Shown piece by piece: positions 9,597-47,436 of a stretch of 64,000 nt of DNA. The stretch lies in assembly GCF_000026545.1 (NCBI RefSeq), contig NC_011601.1. One strand, given 5' to 3'. The translations under genes and the position numbers were made by a program. The notes beneath the pieces were generated by a model. It did no database searches. It was not told the DNA's origin and saw only the letters and a list, made by a program, of their open reading frames with translations. Source of the DNA: Escherichia coli O127:H6 str. E2348/69. Lineage in GTDB: Bacteria; Pseudomonadota; Gammaproteobacteria; Enterobacterales; Enterobacteriaceae. Each line of letters opens with the position of its first letter. Within the stretch, counting starts at the first letter, position 1.

Positions 9597-10577
9597 CTAA
9601 CGTCCTGCTTTTAACAATAACCAGATAAACACCGGCGCACCCAACGTTGCGGTGACCACGCCAATTGGCAGCTCTGCGGCAGCTAATGCCAGGCGCGCTA
9701 CAATATCGGCCAGCAGCAATGCGCTCGCCCCTGCCAGCGCGCAGCCGGGAAGTAATACGCGATGATCGGTTAAACCACACAGCCGGAGAATATGTGGGAT
9801 CACCAGACCAATAAAGCCGATAGCACCCGCCAGCGCCACACTGACGCCAACCATCCAGCCGGTCGCTGCCACCAGCACATTGCGCCAGAACCACAGGGGT
9901 AAACCCAGTTGCCGCGCCGAGATCTCGCCAAGTGCTAATATATTCATCGGCCTGGACTGACAACAGATCCACAACAACACGGGGATCAATGCCAGCATCA
10001 GCCAGCTTTGCCGCCAGTCTACGCCGCCAAAACCGCCCATCATCCAGTACATCAGCTGACGTAAATCAACAGAGGTGGAAAAGTAGATAGCCCACGTCAT
10101 TAGTGCGCTACAGATAATCCCTAATGCAACGCCAGCCAGCAATAACCGACTGGTCGAAAGATGACGACGGGCGAAACGTAAGAGTATTAAAGTGATGATA
10201 AGTGCGCCTGCAATCGCACACAGCCCTAGCGCCCAGTTGGGGAGTTGCCCTTGCCCAAGCAATACCGCGGCGATAAGCCCCACGCCTGCGCCGTTAGAGA
10301 CGCCAAGTAGTCCAGGTTCTGCCAGAGGATTTTCAAACAACGCCTGCATTACAGCGCCGGATATAGCCAGCGCCGCACCAACCAGCAATACAGCCAGCGT
10401 ACGTGGCAGGCGAATTTGCCAGACGAACAGTTCGCCACGAGGAGAAAACCAGTCACCTGGCAAAATCCATAGTTCACCGGCGCAAAGGCTTAAGAGAAGC
10501 GCCAGTAGCATCAAAACTGACAAGCATAATAACCAGCGAATATTTTGTCGCTGTTGTTGGCGGGCAAGTGTCAGCAT
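9597..10577 (-). CDS. btuC: vitamin B12 ABC transporter permease
   Basis: 326-aa polytopic membrane ORF; FecCD-type permease; operon with btuE and btuD. Confidence 0.9.
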
Positions 10578-10635
10578 GGTATCCGTTCTGCTGAAGTGTC
10601 ATGGCGTTGATTTTACGGTGACTCTTCGACAGTGA

Positions 10636-10660
10636 AAAGAAAAAAGGCCGCAGAGCGGCC
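10636..10660. repeat. attL core (direct repeat aaagaaaaaaggccgcagagcggcc)
   Basis: Identical 25-mer found again at 47095..47119; the hairpin ggccgcagagcggcc is the ihfA terminator stem. Confidence 0.85.
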
Positions 10661-10766
10661 ATAAACACAAACAAAAATCAATAAGTTAGATAATTATCAA
10701 AGACTTACAGACACACAAAAACACAGCCAACCACAACAAATAACAGGGATGTGGTCACTTTGTGGA

Positions 10767-11183
10767 TCATTCGCTCCCCTCTTTTTCCTTATTTCGTTGA
10801 ACGCCAATTGCGACACACGTACTAAGCAAATCTTTACATTTCTCTACATCTTCAGACTTACGCAATTTGATGCTTTTTACAGACTGCGGGCTACTGTCCG
10901 TAGCACGATACATCGTTATTTCAATATCATTTCGGTCTAAGAGTCCCATAATGGCTTTTGCAACCTCCACACCCTTCTTCGCGAAATCAAAGAACAGAGC
11001 AAGTTTATATGGATTTTCGACGGAAAAAACTTCAATTTTGCTAAAACCAACATCGTGTAGAGAAAAATATTGCTCAACCTCATCTCGAAGTTCTGGATCG
11101 CATACAATGTCTATTCTCCAGTACTGACCTAAATGCAAATCGCTATTAACTGTTTTTTCCACAACATCCTCCTTACCCAGCAA
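10767..11183 (-). CDS. hypothetical protein (cargo gene downstream of int, abutting attL)
   Basis: 138-aa ORF overlapping the int stop by 11 nt; acidic, no recognisable motif; no P2 counterpart at this position. Confidence 0.5.
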   Translation of the reverse strand: MLGKEDVVEKTVNSDLHLGQYWRIDIVCDPELRDEVEQYFSLHDVGFSKIEVFSVENPYKLALFFDFAKKGVEVAKAIMGLLDRNDIEITMYRATDSSPQSVKSIKLRKSEDVEKCKDLLSTCVAIGVQRNKEKEGSE

Positions 11184-12147
11184 TAGGATTAAATCTCACC
11201 GCATCCTGCAAGTAATCCGGCGCAAGATGGGCATAAATCATCGTTGTCTGAATCTTTGCGTGCCCCAGAATTTTCTGGAGCGTCAGAATATTGCCGCCGT
11301 TCATCATGAAATGACTGGCGAAGGTGTGGCGCAGCGCATGAACAGCCTGGCCGTCAGGAACATCAGGTGCGACCGTTTTGATGACATCGCGAACCAATGG
11401 ATAATCCAGCGTCGGAAACACCAGTTTCCCGCCCCGTTTTTTGATCTTTTCAAACAGGCTTTCAGAAATAGGAACGGTACGGTTTTTGCTGTTCTTCGTT
11501 TTTGAAAAAGTGATTCGACAATGAAGAACACGGCGCTGCTCCAGTGCCGCTACCTCGCCCCATCGCGCCCCGGTCGACAGAAGGATTTCGACAGCCAGCC
11601 GTTCATCGGGATTTTCAGCCAGTGCATCCAGCAACTGAACACATTCAGACTTACTCAGATATCCCATTTCGCGCTCGTTAACCTTCATTCCTTTAAGGCC
11701 TTGAACGGGGTTATCGTTAAGAAAATGGCCGGATGAGATGAGTGCGGTAAACATCGCGCTTAACGCCCCAATCTCTCGATTAATGGTGCTGGGCTGTATC
11801 CCCTGCTCTATCCTGGACACACGTAGCTCGGTGAGCATCGTTGTATTAAGTTTATGCACACACGGGTCATCCATTGCCTCACTCAAGCGCAGCAATTTAA
11901 GGCGCGTGTTATGCCCTGACTTCATTAGCTGGCCGTGGTATTTCCACCACAAGTCAATAAGCACCGACAGCGGACGGCGATCAATGGAGTTTCCTTTCCA
12001 CTCATTGTTATGCTGTTGCGCCAGCACCCACCGCTCATATAAAACTGCATCCGATTTCGTTTTAAATTTTTTGCGAATGCGTTTGCCTTTACGCCCCTCA
12101 GGGCGCATGTCAAGAAGATACCCTCCCGGAATTGATTTTATGCTCAT
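11173..12147 (-). CDS. int: P2-type tyrosine integrase
   Basis: Product from MSIKSIPGGYLLDMRPEGRKGKRIRKKF closely parallels P2 Int; C-terminal HALRHTFASHFMMNGG ... LGHAKIQTTMIYAHL catalytic motifs; the listed ORF extends upstream to 12297 but the P2-like start is the internal Met. Confidence 0.9.
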   Translation of the reverse strand: MSIKSIPGGYLLDMRPEGRKGKRIRKKFKTKSDAVLYERWVLAQQHNNEWKGNSIDRRPLSVLIDLWWKYHGQLMKSGHNTRLKLLRLSEAMDDPCVHKLNTTMLTELRVSRIEQGIQPSTINREIGALSAMFTALISSGHFLNDNPVQGLKGMKVNEREMGYLSKSECVQLLDALAENPDERLAVEILLSTGARWGEVAALEQRRVLHCRITFSKTKNSKNRTVPISESLFEKIKKRGGKLVFPTLDYPLVRDVIKTVAPDVPDGQAVHALRHTFASHFMMNGGNILTLQKILGHAKIQTTMIYAHLAPDYLQDAVRFNPIAG

Positions 12148-12196
12148 TCGTGAAACCCCAGCGTTACAAGACCACCATGCCCCCAGCGTTCCATGA

Positions 12197-12505
12197 TTAA
12201 CCGGGCTGTGTACCAGTCTTGCGGGATTTTTGAGAAGACGATGTGTTTTCTGGCCCATCAGGGGAGAGAGAGGGACTGATCTGCCCAGCAGCCTCATTTG
12301 TTTTTCCCGTCATAAGCCAATTCATGTACTTAAAAAAGCGAGGGTGATTAACAATCTTGATAAGCACTTCGCCCCCTATGTTTTCAATCCGCCCCGTTTC
12401 ATAACGACGCAAAGTGCCGATAGGCACATCAATCAGGCCGCAAAATTCTTCGCGCGTTAAATCCTCTGATTCACGAATCACTCTAATTTTTTCACCGATA
12501 AGCAT
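12197..12505 (-). CDS. C: immunity repressor C (HTH)
   Basis: 102-aa ORF; HTH segment and C-terminal GQISPSL ... SSSQKSRKTG resemble P2 C; divergent from the early operon. Confidence 0.8.
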   Translation of the reverse strand: MLIGEKIRVIRESEDLTREEFCGLIDVPIGTLRRYETGRIENIGGEVLIKIVNHPRFFKYMNWLMTGKTNEAAGQISPSLSPDGPENTSSSQKSRKTGTQPG

Positions 12506-12601
12506 TGACAGTGTTCCTATAAGTACACTAAGCTTGCGCGCAAGGTGTACTTATAAGTACACCAAGTCACAAACAACCACAGATAGCGCAGGTTATCACA
12601 C
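12506..12601. promoter_or_regulatory. immunity switch region with direct-repeat operators (Pe/Pc)
   Basis: Two copies of tataagtacac(t/c)aag about 33 bp apart, beside a ttgaca -35-like hexamer, between divergent C and cox-like genes. Confidence 0.6.
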
Positions 12602-17839: not shown

Positions 17840-18799
17840 ATGAAAATTTGTATCGACGACGGCTCCACCAACATCAAGCTGGCATGGACTGAGAACGGCG
17901 AACACCGCAACGCCATCAGCCCGAACAGCTTCAAGTCGGAATGGTCTGCGCCGTTCGGTGGCACGCAGCCCGCGAACTACATGCTTGATGGCGTGCGCTA
18001 TGGTTTTGATCCGGTCAGCGATCGCTTTGTCCAGACGACCGACACGCAATACCAGTACAGCGATGTGAATGTCATTGCCATTCATCATGCGCTGGTCAAA
18101 TCAGGCATCACGCCACAGGAGGTGGATGTGGTTGTCACCCTGCCACTGAGCGAGTATTTCGACACAAACGCACAGCCGGACATGGCCAACATCAACCGCA
18201 AAAAAGCGAACGTTATGCGCCCGGTGGAGTACCAAAACGGCGAGGCATTCACTATCCGTAACGTGCGGGTTATGCCTGAATCCATTCCGGCTGGCTTTAA
18301 AGCACTGGCTGACATGAGTCCGTTTGAATCCCTGCTGATTGTGGATTTGGGCGGAACCACGCTGGATGTGGCAAAGGTTCAGGGGCAACTGGCAGGTATC
18401 AGCCAGGTGTTTTGCGATCCACACGTAGGCGTTTCTCTGATGGCCGATGCCGTGCTGTCGGTGATGGCCACCAACGGTATGCGCACCAGTCACCACATCG
18501 CCAATACCATTATCGAACATCGCCACGATGAAGCCTGGCTGCGCCAGCACATCCACAATGACGCGCATTACGCCAGCCTGATGGCAGTTATTCGTGAAAA
18601 GGAGGAAACACTGAAACAACGCGTGATCCGCGCGCTGGCGGTTTTTTCGGGTTACGGGCGGGTGATGGTTGTCGGTGGAGGGGCGGAGATTGTGGCACCC
18701 GCTATCCGCGAAGCCTGCGGAGTTAATGCGACTTTCATCGCGGACGGGGTGCCACAGTTTGCTCTGGTTAATGGGCTGTACGCAATGGACAAGGAGTAA
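17840..18799 (+). CDS. ParM/StbA-type actin-like segregation ATPase
   Basis: 319-aa ORF; N-terminus MKICIDDGSTNIKLAWTE and the segments YSDVNVIAIHHAL, VMPESIPAG, LLIVDLGGTTLD, VMVVGGGAE parallel plasmid R1 ParM (StbA) along the whole length. Confidence 0.8.
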   Translation: MKICIDDGSTNIKLAWTENGEHRNAISPNSFKSEWSAPFGGTQPANYMLDGVRYGFDPVSDRFVQTTDTQYQYSDVNVIAIHHALVKSGITPQEVDVVVTLPLSEYFDTNAQPDMANINRKKANVMRPVEYQNGEAFTIRNVRVMPESIPAGFKALADMSPFESLLIVDLGGTTLDVAKVQGQLAGISQVFCDPHVGVSLMADAVLSVMATNGMRTSHHIANTIIEHRHDEAWLRQHIHNDAHYASLMAVIREKEETLKQRVIRALAVFSGYGRVMVVGGGAEIVAPAIREACGVNATFIADGVPQFALVNGLYAMDKE

Positions 18800-18803
18800 A
18801 CCA

Positions 18804-19115
18804 ATGACGACTCCAACCAGACGGATAAGTTTCTATCTGAAGCCCACCGCCGTCAAGAACGAAGGAGAAGCATGCGCCTGGCTGGACAGCCTTACACCAG
18901 AAGCCCGCAAAAGCGGCCAACGCGTGGCTTTTCTGGCCGGGCTGGCACTTCTGAAAATGAATCCGGCAGAGGCTTACCGACTGGCTGCATGGGCTGATGA
19001 TGAGGTGTTATCAGTGACACAAACCAAGACAGAACGCCCCGCGTCACAGCCAGTATCAACCGCACAGATAACCAGTCAGATGGCCGGAAATATCCGGGCG
19101 TTATTTCCTGAATAA
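18804..19115 (+). CDS. ParR/StbB-like adaptor protein
   Basis: 103-aa product from MTTPTRRISFYLKP inside the listed 18669..19115 ORF; N-terminal region parallels R1 ParR (RRxIxFxLxP ... LDS ... AGLAL); follows the parM-like gene. Confidence 0.6.
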   Translation: MTTPTRRISFYLKPTAVKNEGEACAWLDSLTPEARKSGQRVAFLAGLALLKMNPAEAYRLAAWADDEVLSVTQTKTERPASQPVSTAQITSQMAGNIRALFPE

Positions 19116-19493: not shown

Positions 19494-20576
19494 ATGGTAA
19501 ACGTGAGGGAGGATGAACTTTTCAAACTCATCGAGCAAGGCATCAAAGGCAACGCAAATGCATTTACACTCCTATGCAGAAAGATGATTAACAACATCCG
19601 TAAAAATGATGAGGCTTTAGCTTCTAAGCTGGCTTCGTTAGTTGCTGAGGGAACAGTATTACGTGGGGCATCTAGTAAGGCTCCTATGCCTGTGGATGGA
19701 GACTCCAGACGAAACCTTTTGCAGGAAACATCTGTCAACGCAATTGTTGAAGAACCTGTATGGAATACGGATATCTCAAAGAAGCTGGAGTCAATTGTTA
19801 ACGAAAGAGAGAATGCGGTTTCTTTGTTCAAAGCTGGTCTTGAACCTGTGAAGACGGTTTTACTTTCTGGCCCGCCAGGCGTAGGCAAAACAATGTCCGC
19901 ACATTGGCTTGCTGCAAAGTTAAATTTACCTCTTTTAACATTGGATCTCTCATCTGTAATGAGTTCTCTTTTGGGAAAAACAGGTAATAATATTAAATCC
20001 GTTATGGATTATGCCAAAGAGAAACCATGTGTCCTTTTGCTTGATGAATTTGATGCTGTTGCAAAAAGACGTGATGATGACAGGGACGTTGGAGAATTAA
20101 AACGTTTAGTTACTGTACTCCTACAGACCATAGATGAGTGGCCAGCGACCTCGCTTCTTGTTGCTGCGACTAATCACCCTGATATCTTAGATCCGGCTGT
20201 TTGGCGTCGATTTGAGCACATCCTTAAATTTAATATGCCATCAGTAGAACTGATAGATAGATATTTAGTCAATCATAATATTGAACCTGAACTATCTAAA
20301 AAACTTGCACCATTATTAGATGGCATGTCCTTTGCCATCATTAACCGTATTTTGAATTTCTCCAAAAAGAATGAGGTACTTAGAAATATTCCATTTGAAA
20401 GCTCATTAATAGAAGCCGTAATTACGGAGAGGGTTTCATTGGATGAGTTTAGCGATAATGATCTCAATATAATTAAATATCATTTTGACGGTTTTTCAAA
20501 TAGGAAGATAGCTGAATTAGTTGGTGTTTCACATCCAACAATCGCGAATAAATTACAAAAGTGGGGGATTAAATGA
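19494..20576 (+). CDS. AAA+ ATPase with C-terminal HTH-like segment (candidate defence component A)
   Basis: 360-aa ORF; Walker A LLSGPPGVGKT, Walker B VLLLDEFDAV, sensor-1/Arg-finger ATNHPDILDPAVWRRF; C-terminal NRKIAELVGVSHPTIANKL; AT-rich codon usage. Confidence 0.8.
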   Translation: MVNVREDELFKLIEQGIKGNANAFTLLCRKMINNIRKNDEALASKLASLVAEGTVLRGASSKAPMPVDGDSRRNLLQETSVNAIVEEPVWNTDISKKLESIVNERENAVSLFKAGLEPVKTVLLSGPPGVGKTMSAHWLAAKLNLPLLTLDLSSVMSSLLGKTGNNIKSVMDYAKEKPCVLLLDEFDAVAKRRDDDRDVGELKRLVTVLLQTIDEWPATSLLVAATNHPDILDPAVWRRFEHILKFNMPSVELIDRYLVNHNIEPELSKKLAPLLDGMSFAIINRILNFSKKNEVLRNIPFESSLIEAVITERVSLDEFSDNDLNIIKYHFDGFSNRKIAELVGVSHPTIANKLQKWGIK

Positions 20577-22777
20577 TGGAAAGGAACTTACTTTTAGGTA
20601 ACGGTCATGTTCTGACAAAAAAGGAACCTTTGCCTAAAGGAAGGGATGGTAAGCGCTATCCCTATACTCTTGAAGAAGTAAGGGAGCATTTAAACCCAGA
20701 GATTGATACTTTACTCTCACGCTTTCGCAGTTTGGATGATGCGGCTAAGCCAAGGGGGGAGAGTGTATTCAATTTAACTTTACACCCAGCGTTTTTGGGT
20801 AAAAGCTACTTTCCGGAAGGATTGCTTAGAGCGACAGGTTTACGGGATGTCGGCAGCCGTCAGGTAATCATTCGCCCACGGAAAGCGGCACGTCAGTGCG
20901 ATCAGAATAAGGACTTAGTAACGGCGCAACTGTTTGTTAGCGGTGATGATGATGCCGTTATAAGATTTAAGGAAATTTTAAATTCCCCTACAGCTCCGAA
21001 GGGCGTACAAAAGGATTTGATCGAAATTGAAAGTGTTAGCTTTTTTGAAGGAAAAGAGAGAGCACGCAATTTTGAGCATGCGAAAAGTGATTTGATAAAA
21101 TTTGAAGTGGTTCTTCATGCTGGGGTTGAAGACGATGATATCGTTAAAGCCTATATTAGCTATGCGGCACAATATGATGTCTCTGTTGATTACAAAAGTA
21201 GAATCCAAGTTGGTGGGCTGACTTTCATCGTTGCACACGCGCGACCTGAAGATATGAAAAAAACACTCGATTTTTCATTAATCCGCGTTGTGCGGCCGAT
21301 GCCGTCTCTCAGGTGTACTCAGCCGAACATTGTCAGAAAGTTATCTAATATAGTTACACCGGAGCTCCCTAATTCTAAAGCTGTTCTTGAATCCGAACGT
21401 ATTGCCATTTTTGATGGTGGCTTGGGGACAGCTGACTTGAGTAATTGGGTTACGGAATACGTGTATCCAGACACCAAAGAAACAAGCGGATTATTATTGC
21501 AGCACGGTAATGAAGTGACATCCACTTTCTTATTCGGACGTGTCGAGGAAAATGCACCTTCTTTTAAAAGACCGTTTATGAATGTAGATCATTATAGAGT
21601 TCTTTCACCGACATCAGGTGACAATGGCAATTGGGATTTATTTGATGTCCTTAAGAAAATACAGTCCGTTCTTGATAGTGGTGACTATAAGTTCGCTAAT
21701 CTAAGTATTGGTCCTCATCTTCCAATTGGTGATGATGAGGTTCATGTATGGACTGCTGTTTTAGACCAAATCTGTGCTAAGCATGGGATATTACTTACTG
21801 TTGCTGTTGGGAATGATGGCAATGAGGACGGTGATGCAGCGAGAATACAACCTCCTTCCGATATGGTAAACGCGCTAGCGATTGGTGCTGCTGATCGTAG
21901 CGGTGAAAAATGGGGGCGGGCACCATATAGCTGTATTGGGCCAGGCAGAAGCCCCGGATTCGTTAAACCTGATGGTGTTATTTTTGGTGGAAGCGACGAC
22001 GAGCCTTTTTACACTTACAACCCTCTGCTTGGTTCTATAGTTGGAGTTCAAGGAACCAGTTATGCCTCTCCATTAGCATTGAGAACGGCCGCTGGAGTTG
22101 CGGCTCTATCAGGAACTCCATTGAACACCATTGCATTGAAAGCGTTGCTTGTTCATCATGCTGAAACATCAAGAAAATATTCGCGTGAACATATCGGTTG
22201 GGGACGGTTTAGTGAGGATCCTAACGTTTTAATCGATTGTCCAAATGATACTGCTACAGTAATTTACTATGGTTCATTAGCAAAAAATAAATATTTAAGG
22301 GCACCGATCCCATTCCCTGATGTTCCCTTTGACGAAGCATTTGAGCTTACCGCTACTTTATGCATTCAAACCCCAGTAGATCCTGAACATTCAGTAAACT
22401 ATACAAGGGCCGGTATGCAGGTAACTTTCCGCCCAAGATTCGGCCTTGACGATACCGATACAGATGATTTCTTTGGTCAAAAAAGCCAGTATAAGACTGA
22501 AAGGGAGTGTAGGAGTGAAGGTCATAAGTGGGAAACTTGTTTGCACAGAAGCAAAAAGTTCAGTGCTGATACATTATTAAGCGATCCAGTTTTTGATATA
22601 CGGTATCATGCCCGAGATTCTTCGCGCCATGTTAAGGGAGTTTCAGCCCCTGATATGCAATATGCGATGGTAATAAGCGTAAGGGTAAAAGACTTTGATT
22701 TATATAATGTTATTCGCCAGCGATATACAATTCTGAATCCTATTCAACTGCGCACACAAATTTCTCTCGACACGTAA
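20573..22777 (+). CDS. subtilisin-like S8 serine peptidase, large multidomain, no signal peptide (candidate defence component B)
   Basis: 734-aa ORF, ATGA-overlapped with the ATPase gene; S8 motifs in order: Asp IAIFDGGLG, His LLQHGNEV, Asn VAVGNDGNEDG, Ser GVQGTSYASPLAL; about 260-aa N-terminal and 200-aa C-terminal extra regions. Confidence 0.8.
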   Translation: MMERNLLLGNGHVLTKKEPLPKGRDGKRYPYTLEEVREHLNPEIDTLLSRFRSLDDAAKPRGESVFNLTLHPAFLGKSYFPEGLLRATGLRDVGSRQVIIRPRKAARQCDQNKDLVTAQLFVSGDDDAVIRFKEILNSPTAPKGVQKDLIEIESVSFFEGKERARNFEHAKSDLIKFEVVLHAGVEDDDIVKAYISYAAQYDVSVDYKSRIQVGGLTFIVAHARPEDMKKTLDFSLIRVVRPMPSLRCTQPNIVRKLSNIVTPELPNSKAVLESERIAIFDGGLGTADLSNWVTEYVYPDTKETSGLLLQHGNEVTSTFLFGRVEENAPSFKRPFMNVDHYRVLSPTSGDNGNWDLFDVLKKIQSVLDSGDYKFANLSIGPHLPIGDDEVHVWTAVLDQICAKHGILLTVAVGNDGNEDGDAARIQPPSDMVNALAIGAADRSGEKWGRAPYSCIGPGRSPGFVKPDGVIFGGSDDEPFYTYNPLLGSIVGVQGTSYASPLALRTAAGVAALSGTPLNTIALKALLVHHAETSRKYSREHIGWGRFSEDPNVLIDCPNDTATVIYYGSLAKNKYLRAPIPFPDVPFDEAFELTATLCIQTPVDPEHSVNYTRAGMQVTFRPRFGLDDTDTDDFFGQKSQYKTERECRSEGHKWETCLHRSKKFSADTLLSDPVFDIRYHARDSSRHVKGVSAPDMQYAMVISVRVKDFDLYNVIRQRYTILNPIQLRTQISLDT

Positions 22778-45402: not shown

Positions 45403-46092
45403 ATGCCATGTCAAAGGATCCATGTTATGAATATGCAAATTTTTATCGCACCAGCAGCCACAGTTGCTGCAGTCTGCCTTGCTGCATATTTTGCTTTACG
45501 AAATGAACGTAAAAAGAAAGCACTTGAGATTAGAACAACTCAACTAGATCGAATATCTGAGCTAGTAAACCGAGCATCTACCAATTTGATGCAATATACA
45601 GGTACTCTTGCCTCTATACTGGAAGCGCACGCCAAAGATAATTATCTACCGAACAAAAAATTTGACATTAATGTAATTAGCAAATGGAAAGATTGCCTCG
45701 ATGAGAGTGAGGTCTGGGCGATTGATATACAGCAACTAAGAACATGTCAGCACAGTCTGGAGTTTCATCGTGAAAAAGAATGGGCTGAATGGAAAAAAAT
45801 AATTCCACCATTACTTGATAAAATTAACCAATTTTTTCTCATATCTAAGCCAGGGCAACCTGTTACGTTTATAAATGGCCAAAACAAAACAGCTGATGAA
45901 CTACTTGTTTTCTCAAGATATTTGAGAAAACAAACAGCAGAAATTGAATCAGTACGTCAGCTGTTACTTTCTCAAATGAGAGAGGAATTCATCGAGTTAA
46001 CTAGCTTTGAACCTGTCACAATGTTTAGCTTATTTAAATCAATAAAGAAAAATGTCATGCAATTTTTCTGTATCAGTGCTCTTAAAAATTGA
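45403..46092 (+). CDS. hypothetical membrane-anchored protein (AT-rich moron between D and ogr)
   Basis: 229-aa ORF; one N-terminal TM helix (IFIAPAATVAAVCLAAYFAL) followed by a Lys/Glu-rich soluble domain; strongly AT-rich codons; the start may be an internal Met (MNMQ). Confidence 0.55.
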   Translation: MPCQRIHVMNMQIFIAPAATVAAVCLAAYFALRNERKKKALEIRTTQLDRISELVNRASTNLMQYTGTLASILEAHAKDNYLPNKKFDINVISKWKDCLDESEVWAIDIQQLRTCQHSLEFHREKEWAEWKKIIPPLLDKINQFFLISKPGQPVTFINGQNKTADELLVFSRYLRKQTAEIESVRQLLLSQMREEFIELTSFEPVTMFSLFKSIKKNVMQFFCISALKN

Positions 46093-46241: not shown

Positions 46242-46502
46242 ATGTTCCGTTGTCCGCTTTGTGGCGCATCTGCCCGTATCCGCACCAGTCGTCCGGAAAA
46301 TGATTCAAACACCGTGCGGCAAAAGTATTACCAGTGTAACAACCTGGAATGCGGCGTATGCTTCTCAACACTGGAAGCTTTCCATAAATTCACATCGAAA
46401 CACGCCTCCGGCATCCACTCTTCAGAAGGTATCCCGTGGCATGAGCTGCCAGCTTCACACAGGGGAAACAATCAGATGAGCTTGCCTTTACCTCAGAATT
46501 AA
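46242..46502 (+). CDS. ogr: late gene activator, Ogr/Delta zinc-finger family
   Basis: MFRCPLCGASARIRTSR ... YYQCNNLECGVCFSTLE matches the P2 Ogr CxxC-N-CxxxxC pattern. Confidence 0.85.
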   Translation: MFRCPLCGASARIRTSRPENDSNTVRQKYYQCNNLECGVCFSTLEAFHKFTSKHASGIHSSEGIPWHELPASHRGNNQMSLPLPQN

Positions 46503-46562: not shown

Positions 46563-46775
46563 ATGGTCGGAGGGAATACCCGAAGGCCAGATGTGGAAAG
46601 GCCCCGGAAAACATCTCTGTTTAACCGAGGCCCTAACCGCATTACCTTGACAAGTGAAAGGTTAGCGCCTCTCCGGAAAAGGAGCAAGTGCTATGTCGCA
46701 AAAATCGCTTACGGCCATCACGTTCTGCGTGACGGCAATCCTCATCATCTGGATGTTGCACGGTTCGCTGTGTGA
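46563..46775 (+). CDS. mok-like overlapping leader reading frame of the hok-type locus
   Basis: 70-aa ORF overlapping the hok-like gene in another frame, as in hok/mok/sok loci. Confidence 0.4.
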   Translation: MVGGNTRRPDVERPRKTSLFNRGPNRITLTSERLAPLRKRSKCYVAKIAYGHHVLRDGNPHHLDVARFAV

Positions 46776-46833
46776 AATACGGATGAGCTTCTGGGGAGCG
46801 GAGTTTGCGGCGTTCTTACAGTGTAAGCAGTAA
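46693..46833 (+). CDS. Hok/Gef-family type I toxin (small membrane protein)
   Basis: 46-aa ORF MSQKSLTAITFCVTAILIIWMLHGSLCEIRMSFWGAEFAAFLQCKQ: one TM helix, then the Hok-family SLCEIR and AAF motifs; ggag RBS upstream; not in the ORF track (under 60 aa). Confidence 0.7.
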   Translation: MSQKSLTAITFCVTAILIIWMLHGSLCEIRMSFWGAEFAAFLQCKQ

Positions 46834-46954: not shown

Positions 46955-47094
46955 GGTGTCCTCACCGACTTGAAACAGTGATCAGACTATAAGACAAAGC
47001 CCACAATGTAGCGGGCTTACTCCCCTCCCCCCACTAAATGTGGACGCATCGTGGAACGAAGAGATATAAAACATTATAAATCAATTAGTTATTG

Positions 47095-47119
47095 AAAGAA
47101 AAAAGGCCGCAGAGCGGCC
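47095..47119. repeat. attR core (direct repeat) overlapping the ihfA terminator
   Basis: Same 25-mer as at 10636..10660; on the minus strand it gives the ggccgctctgcggcc hairpin plus T-tract just downstream of ihfA. Confidence 0.85.
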
Positions 47120-47136
47120 TTTTTAGTTAGATCAGA

Positions 47137-47436
47137 TTACTCGTCTTTGGGCGAAGCGTTTTCGACCCGGCTTTTTAACTTCTGCCCGGGTCTGAAGGTC
47201 ACCACGCGCCGTGCTGTAATGGGAATATCCTCGCCCGTTTTCGGGTTACGTCCCGGGCGTTGATTCTTATCACGCAGATCGAAGTTACCAAAACCAGAGA
47301 GTTTCACCTGTTCGCCGTTTTCCAGAGCGCGACGGATCTCTTCGAAAAACAGTTCAACCAGTTCTTTGGCATCCCGCTTGCTAAGCCCAAGCTTATCAAA
47401 CAGATATTCTGACATTTCAGCTTTTGTAAGCGCCAT
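47137..47436 (-). CDS. ihfA: integration host factor alpha subunit
   Basis: 99-aa [41 protein letters not shown]... recognised as IHF-alpha. Confidence 0.95.

Follow-up and report, generated by a model that had tools for sequence, protein, structure and literature searches.

A small gene between integrase and attachment site in a P2-like prophage of Escherichia coli O127:H6: exchangeable cargo with a possible role in phage conflict

What does a P2-like prophage carry between its integrase gene and its attachment site, and does that gene serve integration or something else? The question is raised by a 64,000-nucleotide stretch of the chromosome of Escherichia coli O127:H6 strain E2348/69 (hereafter the window), in which btuC and ihfA flank a P2-like prophage of about 36.5 kb; across the 2.1 kb compared (10500-12600), identity to this strain is 100%. 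According to RefSeq, btuC is followed by a gene for a hypothetical protein of 131 aa, then by an integrase (324 aa) and an HTH repressor, and these by the early, replication and late genes of the P2 family. The original prediction read the hypothetical gene, here called orf131, as an acidic frame of 138 aa that overlaps the end of int and fills a slot which is empty in P2, and took it for an accessory gene expressed in lysogeny. Overall, the reading as an accessory gene and not a conserved integrase factor is upheld by the present analysis, whereas the overlap with int is not, and acidity is no trait of the family.

The prophage is bounded by a 25-bp exact repeat, AAAGAAAAAAGGCCGCAGAGCGGCC (Table 1). 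Read on the minus strand, this core is the intrinsic terminator behind ihfA, a hairpin with its T-run, and a terminator scan placed a terminator-like site inside the attL copy (minus strand, 10660-10646). In Rfam, the small RNA STnc540 (RF02082, 41 bits) matches across the ihfA 3′ end and the att site (47051-47195, minus strand). Since the att core is the ihfA terminator lying under STnc540, integration of the prophage duplicates an sRNA/mRNA 3′-end terminator, and the copy can terminate an int-orf131 transcript. In the whole 64-kb window there are just two occurrences of the motif TGTGGNCNNNNYGTGGA, against an expectation of 0.01; they lie one in each attP arm, at 90 bp and about 40 bp from the respective cores. 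The motif consists of the same 11-bp-spaced TGTGG direct repeats that are annotated in P2 as Int arm sites. The last base of the P′ arm repeat directly adjoins the stop codon of orf131, so that int is followed in the slot by 10 bp, orf131, the Int arm sites, a spacer of 89 bp and the core, which is also the terminator.

The attP of P2 (AF063097) has the same TGTGG motif in 11-bp direct repeats, in the same orientation in both arms, and its P′ arm lies at nearly the same distance from the core (87 bp, against 90 bp in the window). The two differ in that the P′ arm of P2 lies inside the 3′ end of int, with the int stop codon 79 bp from the core, while in the window int and the arm are 406 bp apart (orf131 plus 10 bp); the slot is thus empty in P2, as had been claimed. 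A core that coincides with the ihfA terminator is a further difference from P2.

Table 1. Coordinates of the orf131 locus and of associated features (window positions, unless a locus handle is given)
Feature	Position	Strand	Remarks
attL core	10636..10660		25-bp exact repeat of attR; minus strand reads GGCCGCTCTGCGGCC, then T-run
attP P′ arm spacer	10661..10749		33% GC; non-coding; conserved in all cassette alleles
P′ arm, P2-type Int arm-binding direct repeats TGTGGTCACTTTGTGGA	10750..10766	+	11-bp spacing; abut orf131 stop codon
orf131	10767..11162	-	WP_000416304.1; 131-aa predicted cytosolic alpha/beta protein; phrog_14142; GTG start
orf131 Shine-Dalgarno AAGGAGG	11168..11174	-	overlaps last two bases of int stop; 5 nt before GTG
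int, P2-family tyrosine integrase, 324 aa	11173..12147	-	Pfam Int_N + Phage_integrase; RefSeq
C-type immunity repressor, HTH, 102 aa	12197..12505	-	first gene of presumed C-int-orf131 transcription unit; operon logic after P2
229-aa ORF just before ogr	45403-46092	+	no Pfam or PADLOC match
P arm Int arm-type sites TGTGGACGCATCGTGGA, attR side	47039..47055	+	motif search
attR core	47095..47119		functional ihfA terminator; exact repeat of attL core
Alternative two-gene pair	L012 1709-2505; also L047, L053, L054, L055		downstream of int; highly diversified

A frame of 138 codons does exist when a TTG start is chosen (10767..11183, minus strand), yet the true gene has 131 codons and starts with GTG at 11162. 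This start is preferred because it stands five bases behind an AAGGAGG ribosome-binding site, because RefSeq annotates the 131-aa product, because the PHROG profile match begins only at residue 8 of the 138-aa version, and because a Salmonella homologue has an ATG at exactly the position of this GTG. Only the TTG version runs into the int stop codon (11173-11175), whereas the true start lies 10 bases beyond it; translational overlap of int and orf131 was therefore rejected. The interval of the original prediction, 10661-11183, is coding only in part: positions 10661-10766 are non-coding and belong to the attP arm, with its Int arm sites at the gene-proximal end. The E2348/69 protein is indeed acidic (pI 5.15, net charge −5), but its homologues range from pI 4.8 to 9.4, and the idea of a DNA mimic or anti-restriction protein, which acidity alone would suggest, was dropped because charge varies across homologues. 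With a GC content of 39% (GC3 35%), orf131 differs from int (49%, GC3 54%) and from the prophage (52%).

Several comparisons bear on whether the frame is used. Against homologues with 77% and 64% identity, dN/dS of orf131 is 0.19-0.23 at dS of 0.7-1.6, and that of int is 0.07-0.08. A single, full-length chromosomal copy (100% query cover) is present in 158 of 5426 complete E. coli genomes, at 95% identity or more in all except one of them. Among the 40 of these rows that were listed, 39 carry an annotated CDS; the other, NCTC11121 (row H53), has a 1-bp deletion (395 of 396 bases aligned) and no CDS there. Otherwise the frame is uninterrupted in close relatives, where an interruption would have counted against the original prediction. 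Another 22 prophage loci in IMG/VR match residues 1-131 at 98-99% identity. Judged by these substitution patterns, orf131 is a real gene under purifying selection.

A profile search extended the family to about 72 homologue clusters (at 90% identity), reaching down to about 30% identity, all in Enterobacterales: Escherichia, Salmonella, Citrobacter, Enterobacter, Klebsiella, Raoultella, Yokenella, Kosakonia, Yersinia, Pectobacterium and Pantoea. Members are about 128-133 aa long; all 72 clusters are annotated as hypothetical, and none has a Pfam domain. The whole of PHROG family phrog_14142 (profile positions 1-128 of 128, E = 8.6e-70) matches orf131, a family which carries no annotation and membership of which says nothing about function. 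Searches with orf131 in Pfam, NCBIfam and PADLOC returned no family match, a tblastn and megablast search of 50,697 deposited phage genomes returned no copy, the region matched no RNA family in Rfam, and a literature search by accession found nothing on the gene. One 2029-aa protein with eight short matches (P0019) was set aside as a repeat artefact, and the label "PDDEXK family nuclease", which one source attaches to one homologue, is supported by none of the searches. Proteins of about 57 aa in E. coli, Salmonella and Pantoea (P0123-P0131) cover about 40% of the query; they may be fragments left at old att sites.

In other prophages the slot is occupied differently. In E. coli CE20, which shares its attL with the window and whose int shows 99.7% DNA identity across an alignment of 615 bp, orf131 is replaced by two other, overlapping genes (120 and 145 aa); similarity to the window ends at 10774 and returns at 11186. 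Among IMG/VR prophages with the same core and an Int of 98-100% identity, at least five alleles of the slot were found, namely orf131 or one of four diverged two-gene pairs. In all alleles homology breaks off some five codons ahead of the int stop and is restored exactly at GATCCACAAAGTGACCACA, the arm site; relative to that stop, the start of every cassette falls at −7 to +14 nt. The repressor gene C is exchanged independently of int-orf131. Identity also differs between Int and the orf131 product, Int standing at 85% and the ORF product at 47% in L121, and the two at 83% and 64% in Salmonella L002; this discordance indicates allele turnover within the orf131 family too. Because the same Int and the same att carry other cassettes, the slot is exchangeable, and orf131 is very probably an exchangeable accessory (cargo) gene of the P2-like prophage.

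In the sense of Hendrix and colleagues, a moron is a gene present in some relatives and absent from others between adjacent sites, with deviant base composition, a promoter and terminator of its own, and expression from the repressed prophage. The first two features are seen here: P2 lacks the gene, near-identical integrases are followed by other cassettes, and the GC content stands well below that of the prophage, which agrees with the claim of an extra gene relative to P2. The locus also shows what is found for cargo of the P2 int-att hotspot, i.e., a position between int and att together with allelic turnover, and, like that cargo, its alleles are swapped between near-identical elements; unlike it, orf131 corresponds to no recognised defence system. 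This interval has been described as a minor defence hotspot holding 3% of P2 defence systems, and analogous att-int cargo in PICI satellites is cited in the same work (bioRxiv 10.64898/2026.02.27.708500).

The alternative cassette consists of a zinc-ribbon-like protein of phrog_4293 (120-166 aa) and a glycine-rich coiled-coil protein resembling phrog_9415, with a C-terminal membrane anchor (100-184 aa). The pair is itself a candidate conflict system. PADLOC matches of the second protein to LmuB and ZorA are coiled-coil matches and were discarded as not meaningful.

Across Enterobacterales the gene is not tied to int. The position next to int is confined to the ihfA/btuC lineage of E. coli and Salmonella and to a related lineage beside greA (L121). 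At the other end of the prophage, on the ogr side, homologues occur in Yersinia, Klebsiella, Enterobacter, Citrobacter, Pectobacterium, most Salmonella and a metagenomic P2-like phage; there they directly follow a host gene (fabF, raiA, mlaA, ybjL or a U32 peptidase gene), point inward, converge on ogr and are often flanked by terminators. The circular order ogr-(hok)-ORF-int is nevertheless constant and only the position of the att crossover varies, so that most homologues lie across the crossover from int and are unlinked to it in the lysogen, while every family member adjoins an attP arm. From this distribution the family, an orphan one confined to prophage ends, is an old, non-core resident of the ogr-int interval and not a recent one-off insertion.

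Other genes were seen near the same ends. In the window, the space between ogr (46242-46502) and attR contains a gene for a 46-aa Hok/Gef toxin (46693-46833, plus strand; Pfam HOK_GEF, E = 4e-7), and in a Yersinia P2-like prophage a hok/gef gene directly neighbours the orf131 homologue (L124 5558-5707); no sok-type RNA near the hok/gef genes reached the Rfam gathering score. Another Yersinia locus has a PemK-type toxin pair between host mlaA and the homologue (L125 4127-4737), and the insertion of this pair makes the host-proximal side of the gene a cargo site as well. In Pectobacterium, a remnant between raiA and pheA (L122/L123 5001-7340) consists of an orf131 homologue, an ogr-type gene and two ORFs only. 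After the ogr-side homologue, which stands there beside raiA or ybjL, Salmonella L009 (6388-7418) and Citrobacter L037 (3702-4269) have about 0.5-1 kb without a long ORF, and then tail genes.

In P2, the lysogenic promoter Pc drives C and then int, and the P2 record (AF063097) annotates Pc upstream of C. By analogy, Pc in the E2348/69 prophage would transcribe a C-int-orf131 message with orf131 as its last gene, and translation of orf131 would start from a strong ribosome-binding site that belongs to it alone. Transcription would stop at the ihfA terminator in the attL core, and this would result in a low, constant level of the protein in lysogens. In a scan of the int-orf131 junction, neither a terminator-like nor a promoter-like site was found; the first terminator beyond orf131 is that of the att core. 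Low-level transcription of repressor and integrase has been seen under each of 22 conditions in BTP5, a P2-like prophage of Salmonella (PMC7067206). Since these data stand together with the separate ribosome-binding site of orf131, low constant expression in lysogeny is the most economical expectation, and the co-transcription with int that was originally predicted is plausible and somewhat more likely than not, by analogy with P2 and by the layout of the junction. Operon membership with int is not a property of the family, as in most lineages the gene lies apart from int. The ogr-side copies have terminators on both sides, and a promoter-like site of clear sigma-70 type was found in front of only one of them, L037.

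Two AlphaFold2 runs, based on alignments of 13 and 34 sequences, gave the same topology (pLDDT 79 and 75, pTM about 0.7): beta1 (14-21), alpha1, beta2, beta3 (52-59), alpha2 (60-76), beta4, beta5, alpha3 and beta6 (116-123). In both models residues 52-123 are predicted to form beta-alpha-beta-beta-alpha-beta, as in an ACT domain. Residues A68, M72, G73, L74, R77, E81, L100, C109 and L112 are invariant in the family, and the conserved polar positions are H10, C21, C45, R77, D79, E81, T88, K99, R101, D105 and C109; the family has a conserved patch, R-N-D-x-E / K-L-R, along with a conserved His/Cys set. The E2348/69 copy has V45 in place of the conserved C45 and lacks the widespread His-Cys at 85-86; these losses may reflect relaxed constraint in its lineage.

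The resemblance to ACT domains was followed with the small subunit of acetohydroxyacid synthase. The comparator is a sequence that we take to be that of IlvH, in which a Pfam search confirmed the ACT domain. With this N-terminal domain the C-terminal half of orf131 shares the predicted topology and the register of a motif: the best-conserved stretch, IMGLLNRNDIEIE, aligns in register with VIGLFSQRGYNIESL. In hhalign the alignment runs element by element at a probability below 4%, and a global profile alignment of residues 50-126 with the IlvH ACT domain scored 11.1, against 3.1 ± 2.0 for 200 shuffles, a single one of which attained the real score. No ACT match exceeded the Pfam gathering score in 14 members, the best being ACT_AHAS_ss in one homologue (E = 0.087; 13.4 bits, where 27 are required). 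A sequence-profile search of the PDB with orf131 gave only noise (E > 0.1), and Foldseek against PDB and BFVD gave no match at E < 0.001. The C-terminal 75 residues may thus be called weakly ACT-like in the predicted models, as a lead and without assignment. As a best guess from the predicted fold, a protein that binds a ligand or a partner would fit these features better than an enzyme.

One alternative that has to be weighed is an accessory factor of the integrase, i.e., a directionality, arm-binding or int-regulating protein that has co-evolved with Int and att. Such a role would account for the fact that in E. coli and Salmonella orf131 is always found behind the same int, at an unchanging distance of 10 bp and within one and the same ihfA/btuC site, that the synonymous divergence of the two genes is similar, that the stop codon of orf131 touches the Int arm sites, and that an attP arm adjoins every family member. 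The same arm sites and core, however, with Int 98-100% identical, occur with unrelated genes instead of orf131; most homologues sit on the ogr side, P2 recombines without a gene of this type, and orf131 matches no DNA-binding family (there is no HTH, the topology is alpha/beta, and charge is not conserved). We regard this role as most improbable, which accords with the original prediction. Still harder to credit is a decaying or non-functional frame that persists through linkage to int and attP. The missing C45 and His85/Cys86 of the E2348/69 copy, a few truncated variants (P0002, P0004, P0006, P0007) and the single deletion mentioned above would suit it. Against it stand the low dN/dS of about 0.2, the intact copies in complete genomes and IMG/VR loci, a confident fold prediction, and conservation of the family to 30% identity across genera.

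A toxin-antitoxin or addiction partner, for example of a hok/gef-type toxin across attP, is suggested by the conserved circular order, by the hok/gef genes beside the Yersinia homologue and across the att core in the window, and by the PemK pair that adjoins one family member. Control of hok genes is exerted by antisense RNA and not by proteins, which argues against such a part for orf131, as do the many family members without a hok neighbour and the absence of an adjacent toxin gene beside orf131 in the window; the reading is very unlikely. A counter-defence or host-modulating factor that would benefit phage or host and not exclude other phages (a small sponge or sensor of a signalling nucleotide or metabolite, or a regulator of a host enzyme) is in agreement with a small, predicted soluble protein without an enzyme motif, with the predicted, weak ACT-like ligand-binding topology, with the conserved charged patch and Cys/His set of the family, and with the faster evolution of orf131 than of int. 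But orf131 matches no known family, a place downstream of int in the lysogenic operon would be unusual for a counter-defence gene that is needed early in infection, and Anti_RM and Anti_CRISPR were the only types that the 2026 survey recorded, in 28 P2 elements (bioRxiv 10.64898/2026.02.27.708500). We consider it rather unlikely.

The account that we prefer is that of a cargo gene, transcribed from Pc, whose product would be a soluble, three-fold beta-alpha-beta protein that binds a small ligand or a partner protein and is not catalytic, this last being the weakest step. The prophage would use it to its own benefit in conflicts with other phages, by exclusion, defence or counter-defence, and not in site-specific recombination. 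Taken as a whole, this explanation is somewhat favoured. Its component of a role in phage conflict is possible, at a level that we put below even, and a small ligand- or partner-binding protein employed in phage-phage conflict is a best guess held with reserve. A more definite version is offered tentatively: the family would be a single-protein determinant of phage-phage conflict, made of an ACT-like ligand-binding module with a His/Cys site. It might exclude other phages, defend against them or soak up a signalling molecule like a sponge, and its expression would be wired to the integration junction, through the int operon in some lineages and on the host side of the junction in others.

The prior for a conflict role, of about one third, derives from the figures of the hotspot survey and from a known defence system in the main hotspot of the same prophage, and is raised little by the data on orf131 itself. 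In that survey, six of eight hotspot loci of unknown content from P4 satellites protected against phages (P2 loci were not part of the test), and its predictor gave an antiviral score to 15-32% of the unknown proteins of P2 (bioRxiv 10.64898/2026.02.27.708500). The old/tin slot of the E2348/69 prophage (19494-22777, plus strand; L001 28995-32278) holds an AAA ATPase and an S8 peptidase, which PADLOC identifies as IetA (E = 4e-89) and IetS (E = 7e-41), i.e., the IetAS system. Cargo that neighbours the family includes hok/gef and PemK. PADLOC-DB v2 returned no hit for orf131 or its homologues: orf131 matched no family at E ≤ 10, and at E ≤ 1 P0013 and P0014 matched none. orf131 is also small for a defence gene that would stand alone.

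The lysogenic-conversion genes of P2 itself, old, tin and Z/fun, are non-essential, variably present, atypical in base composition and expressed from the prophage, and have demonstrated exclusion phenotypes. The old/tin and Z/fun hotspots have been described (PMC9122126). These genes and orf131 are alike as variable, non-essential cargo, and differ in their slots and in belonging to unrelated protein families; moreover, orf131, unlike them, appears from its upstream sequence to have no promoter of its own and to use the int transcript.

These observations define a cargo slot in P2-like prophages to the base, from the last codons of int to the Int arm-binding repeats of attP. The exchange of cassettes between these limits implies that genes can sit between int and att while recombination is undisturbed. 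They also provide two candidate families for phage conflict, phrog_14142 and the phrog_4293/phrog_9415 pair, which occur in pathogenic E. coli (EPEC E2348/69, O104:H4, O111 and O55:H7), Salmonella, Klebsiella, Citrobacter and Yersinia, and they remove the more exotic reading of a new integrase cofactor. orf131 is an ordinary accessory gene: its protein family is uncharacterised, and the kind of element is already known.

Elsewhere in the prophage, the 229-aa ORF just before ogr is probably further cargo near the att end, and RefSeq annotates ParM-like and plasmid-partition-like genes after replication gene A (17840-19115, plus strand; L001 27341-28616). The BtuC permease figures as a putative "auxiliary metabolic gene" of phages in a survey of P2-like viruses from 2026 (PMC13100340); the entry may be an artefact of prophage boundaries, as prophages of this kind adjoin the host gene btuC.
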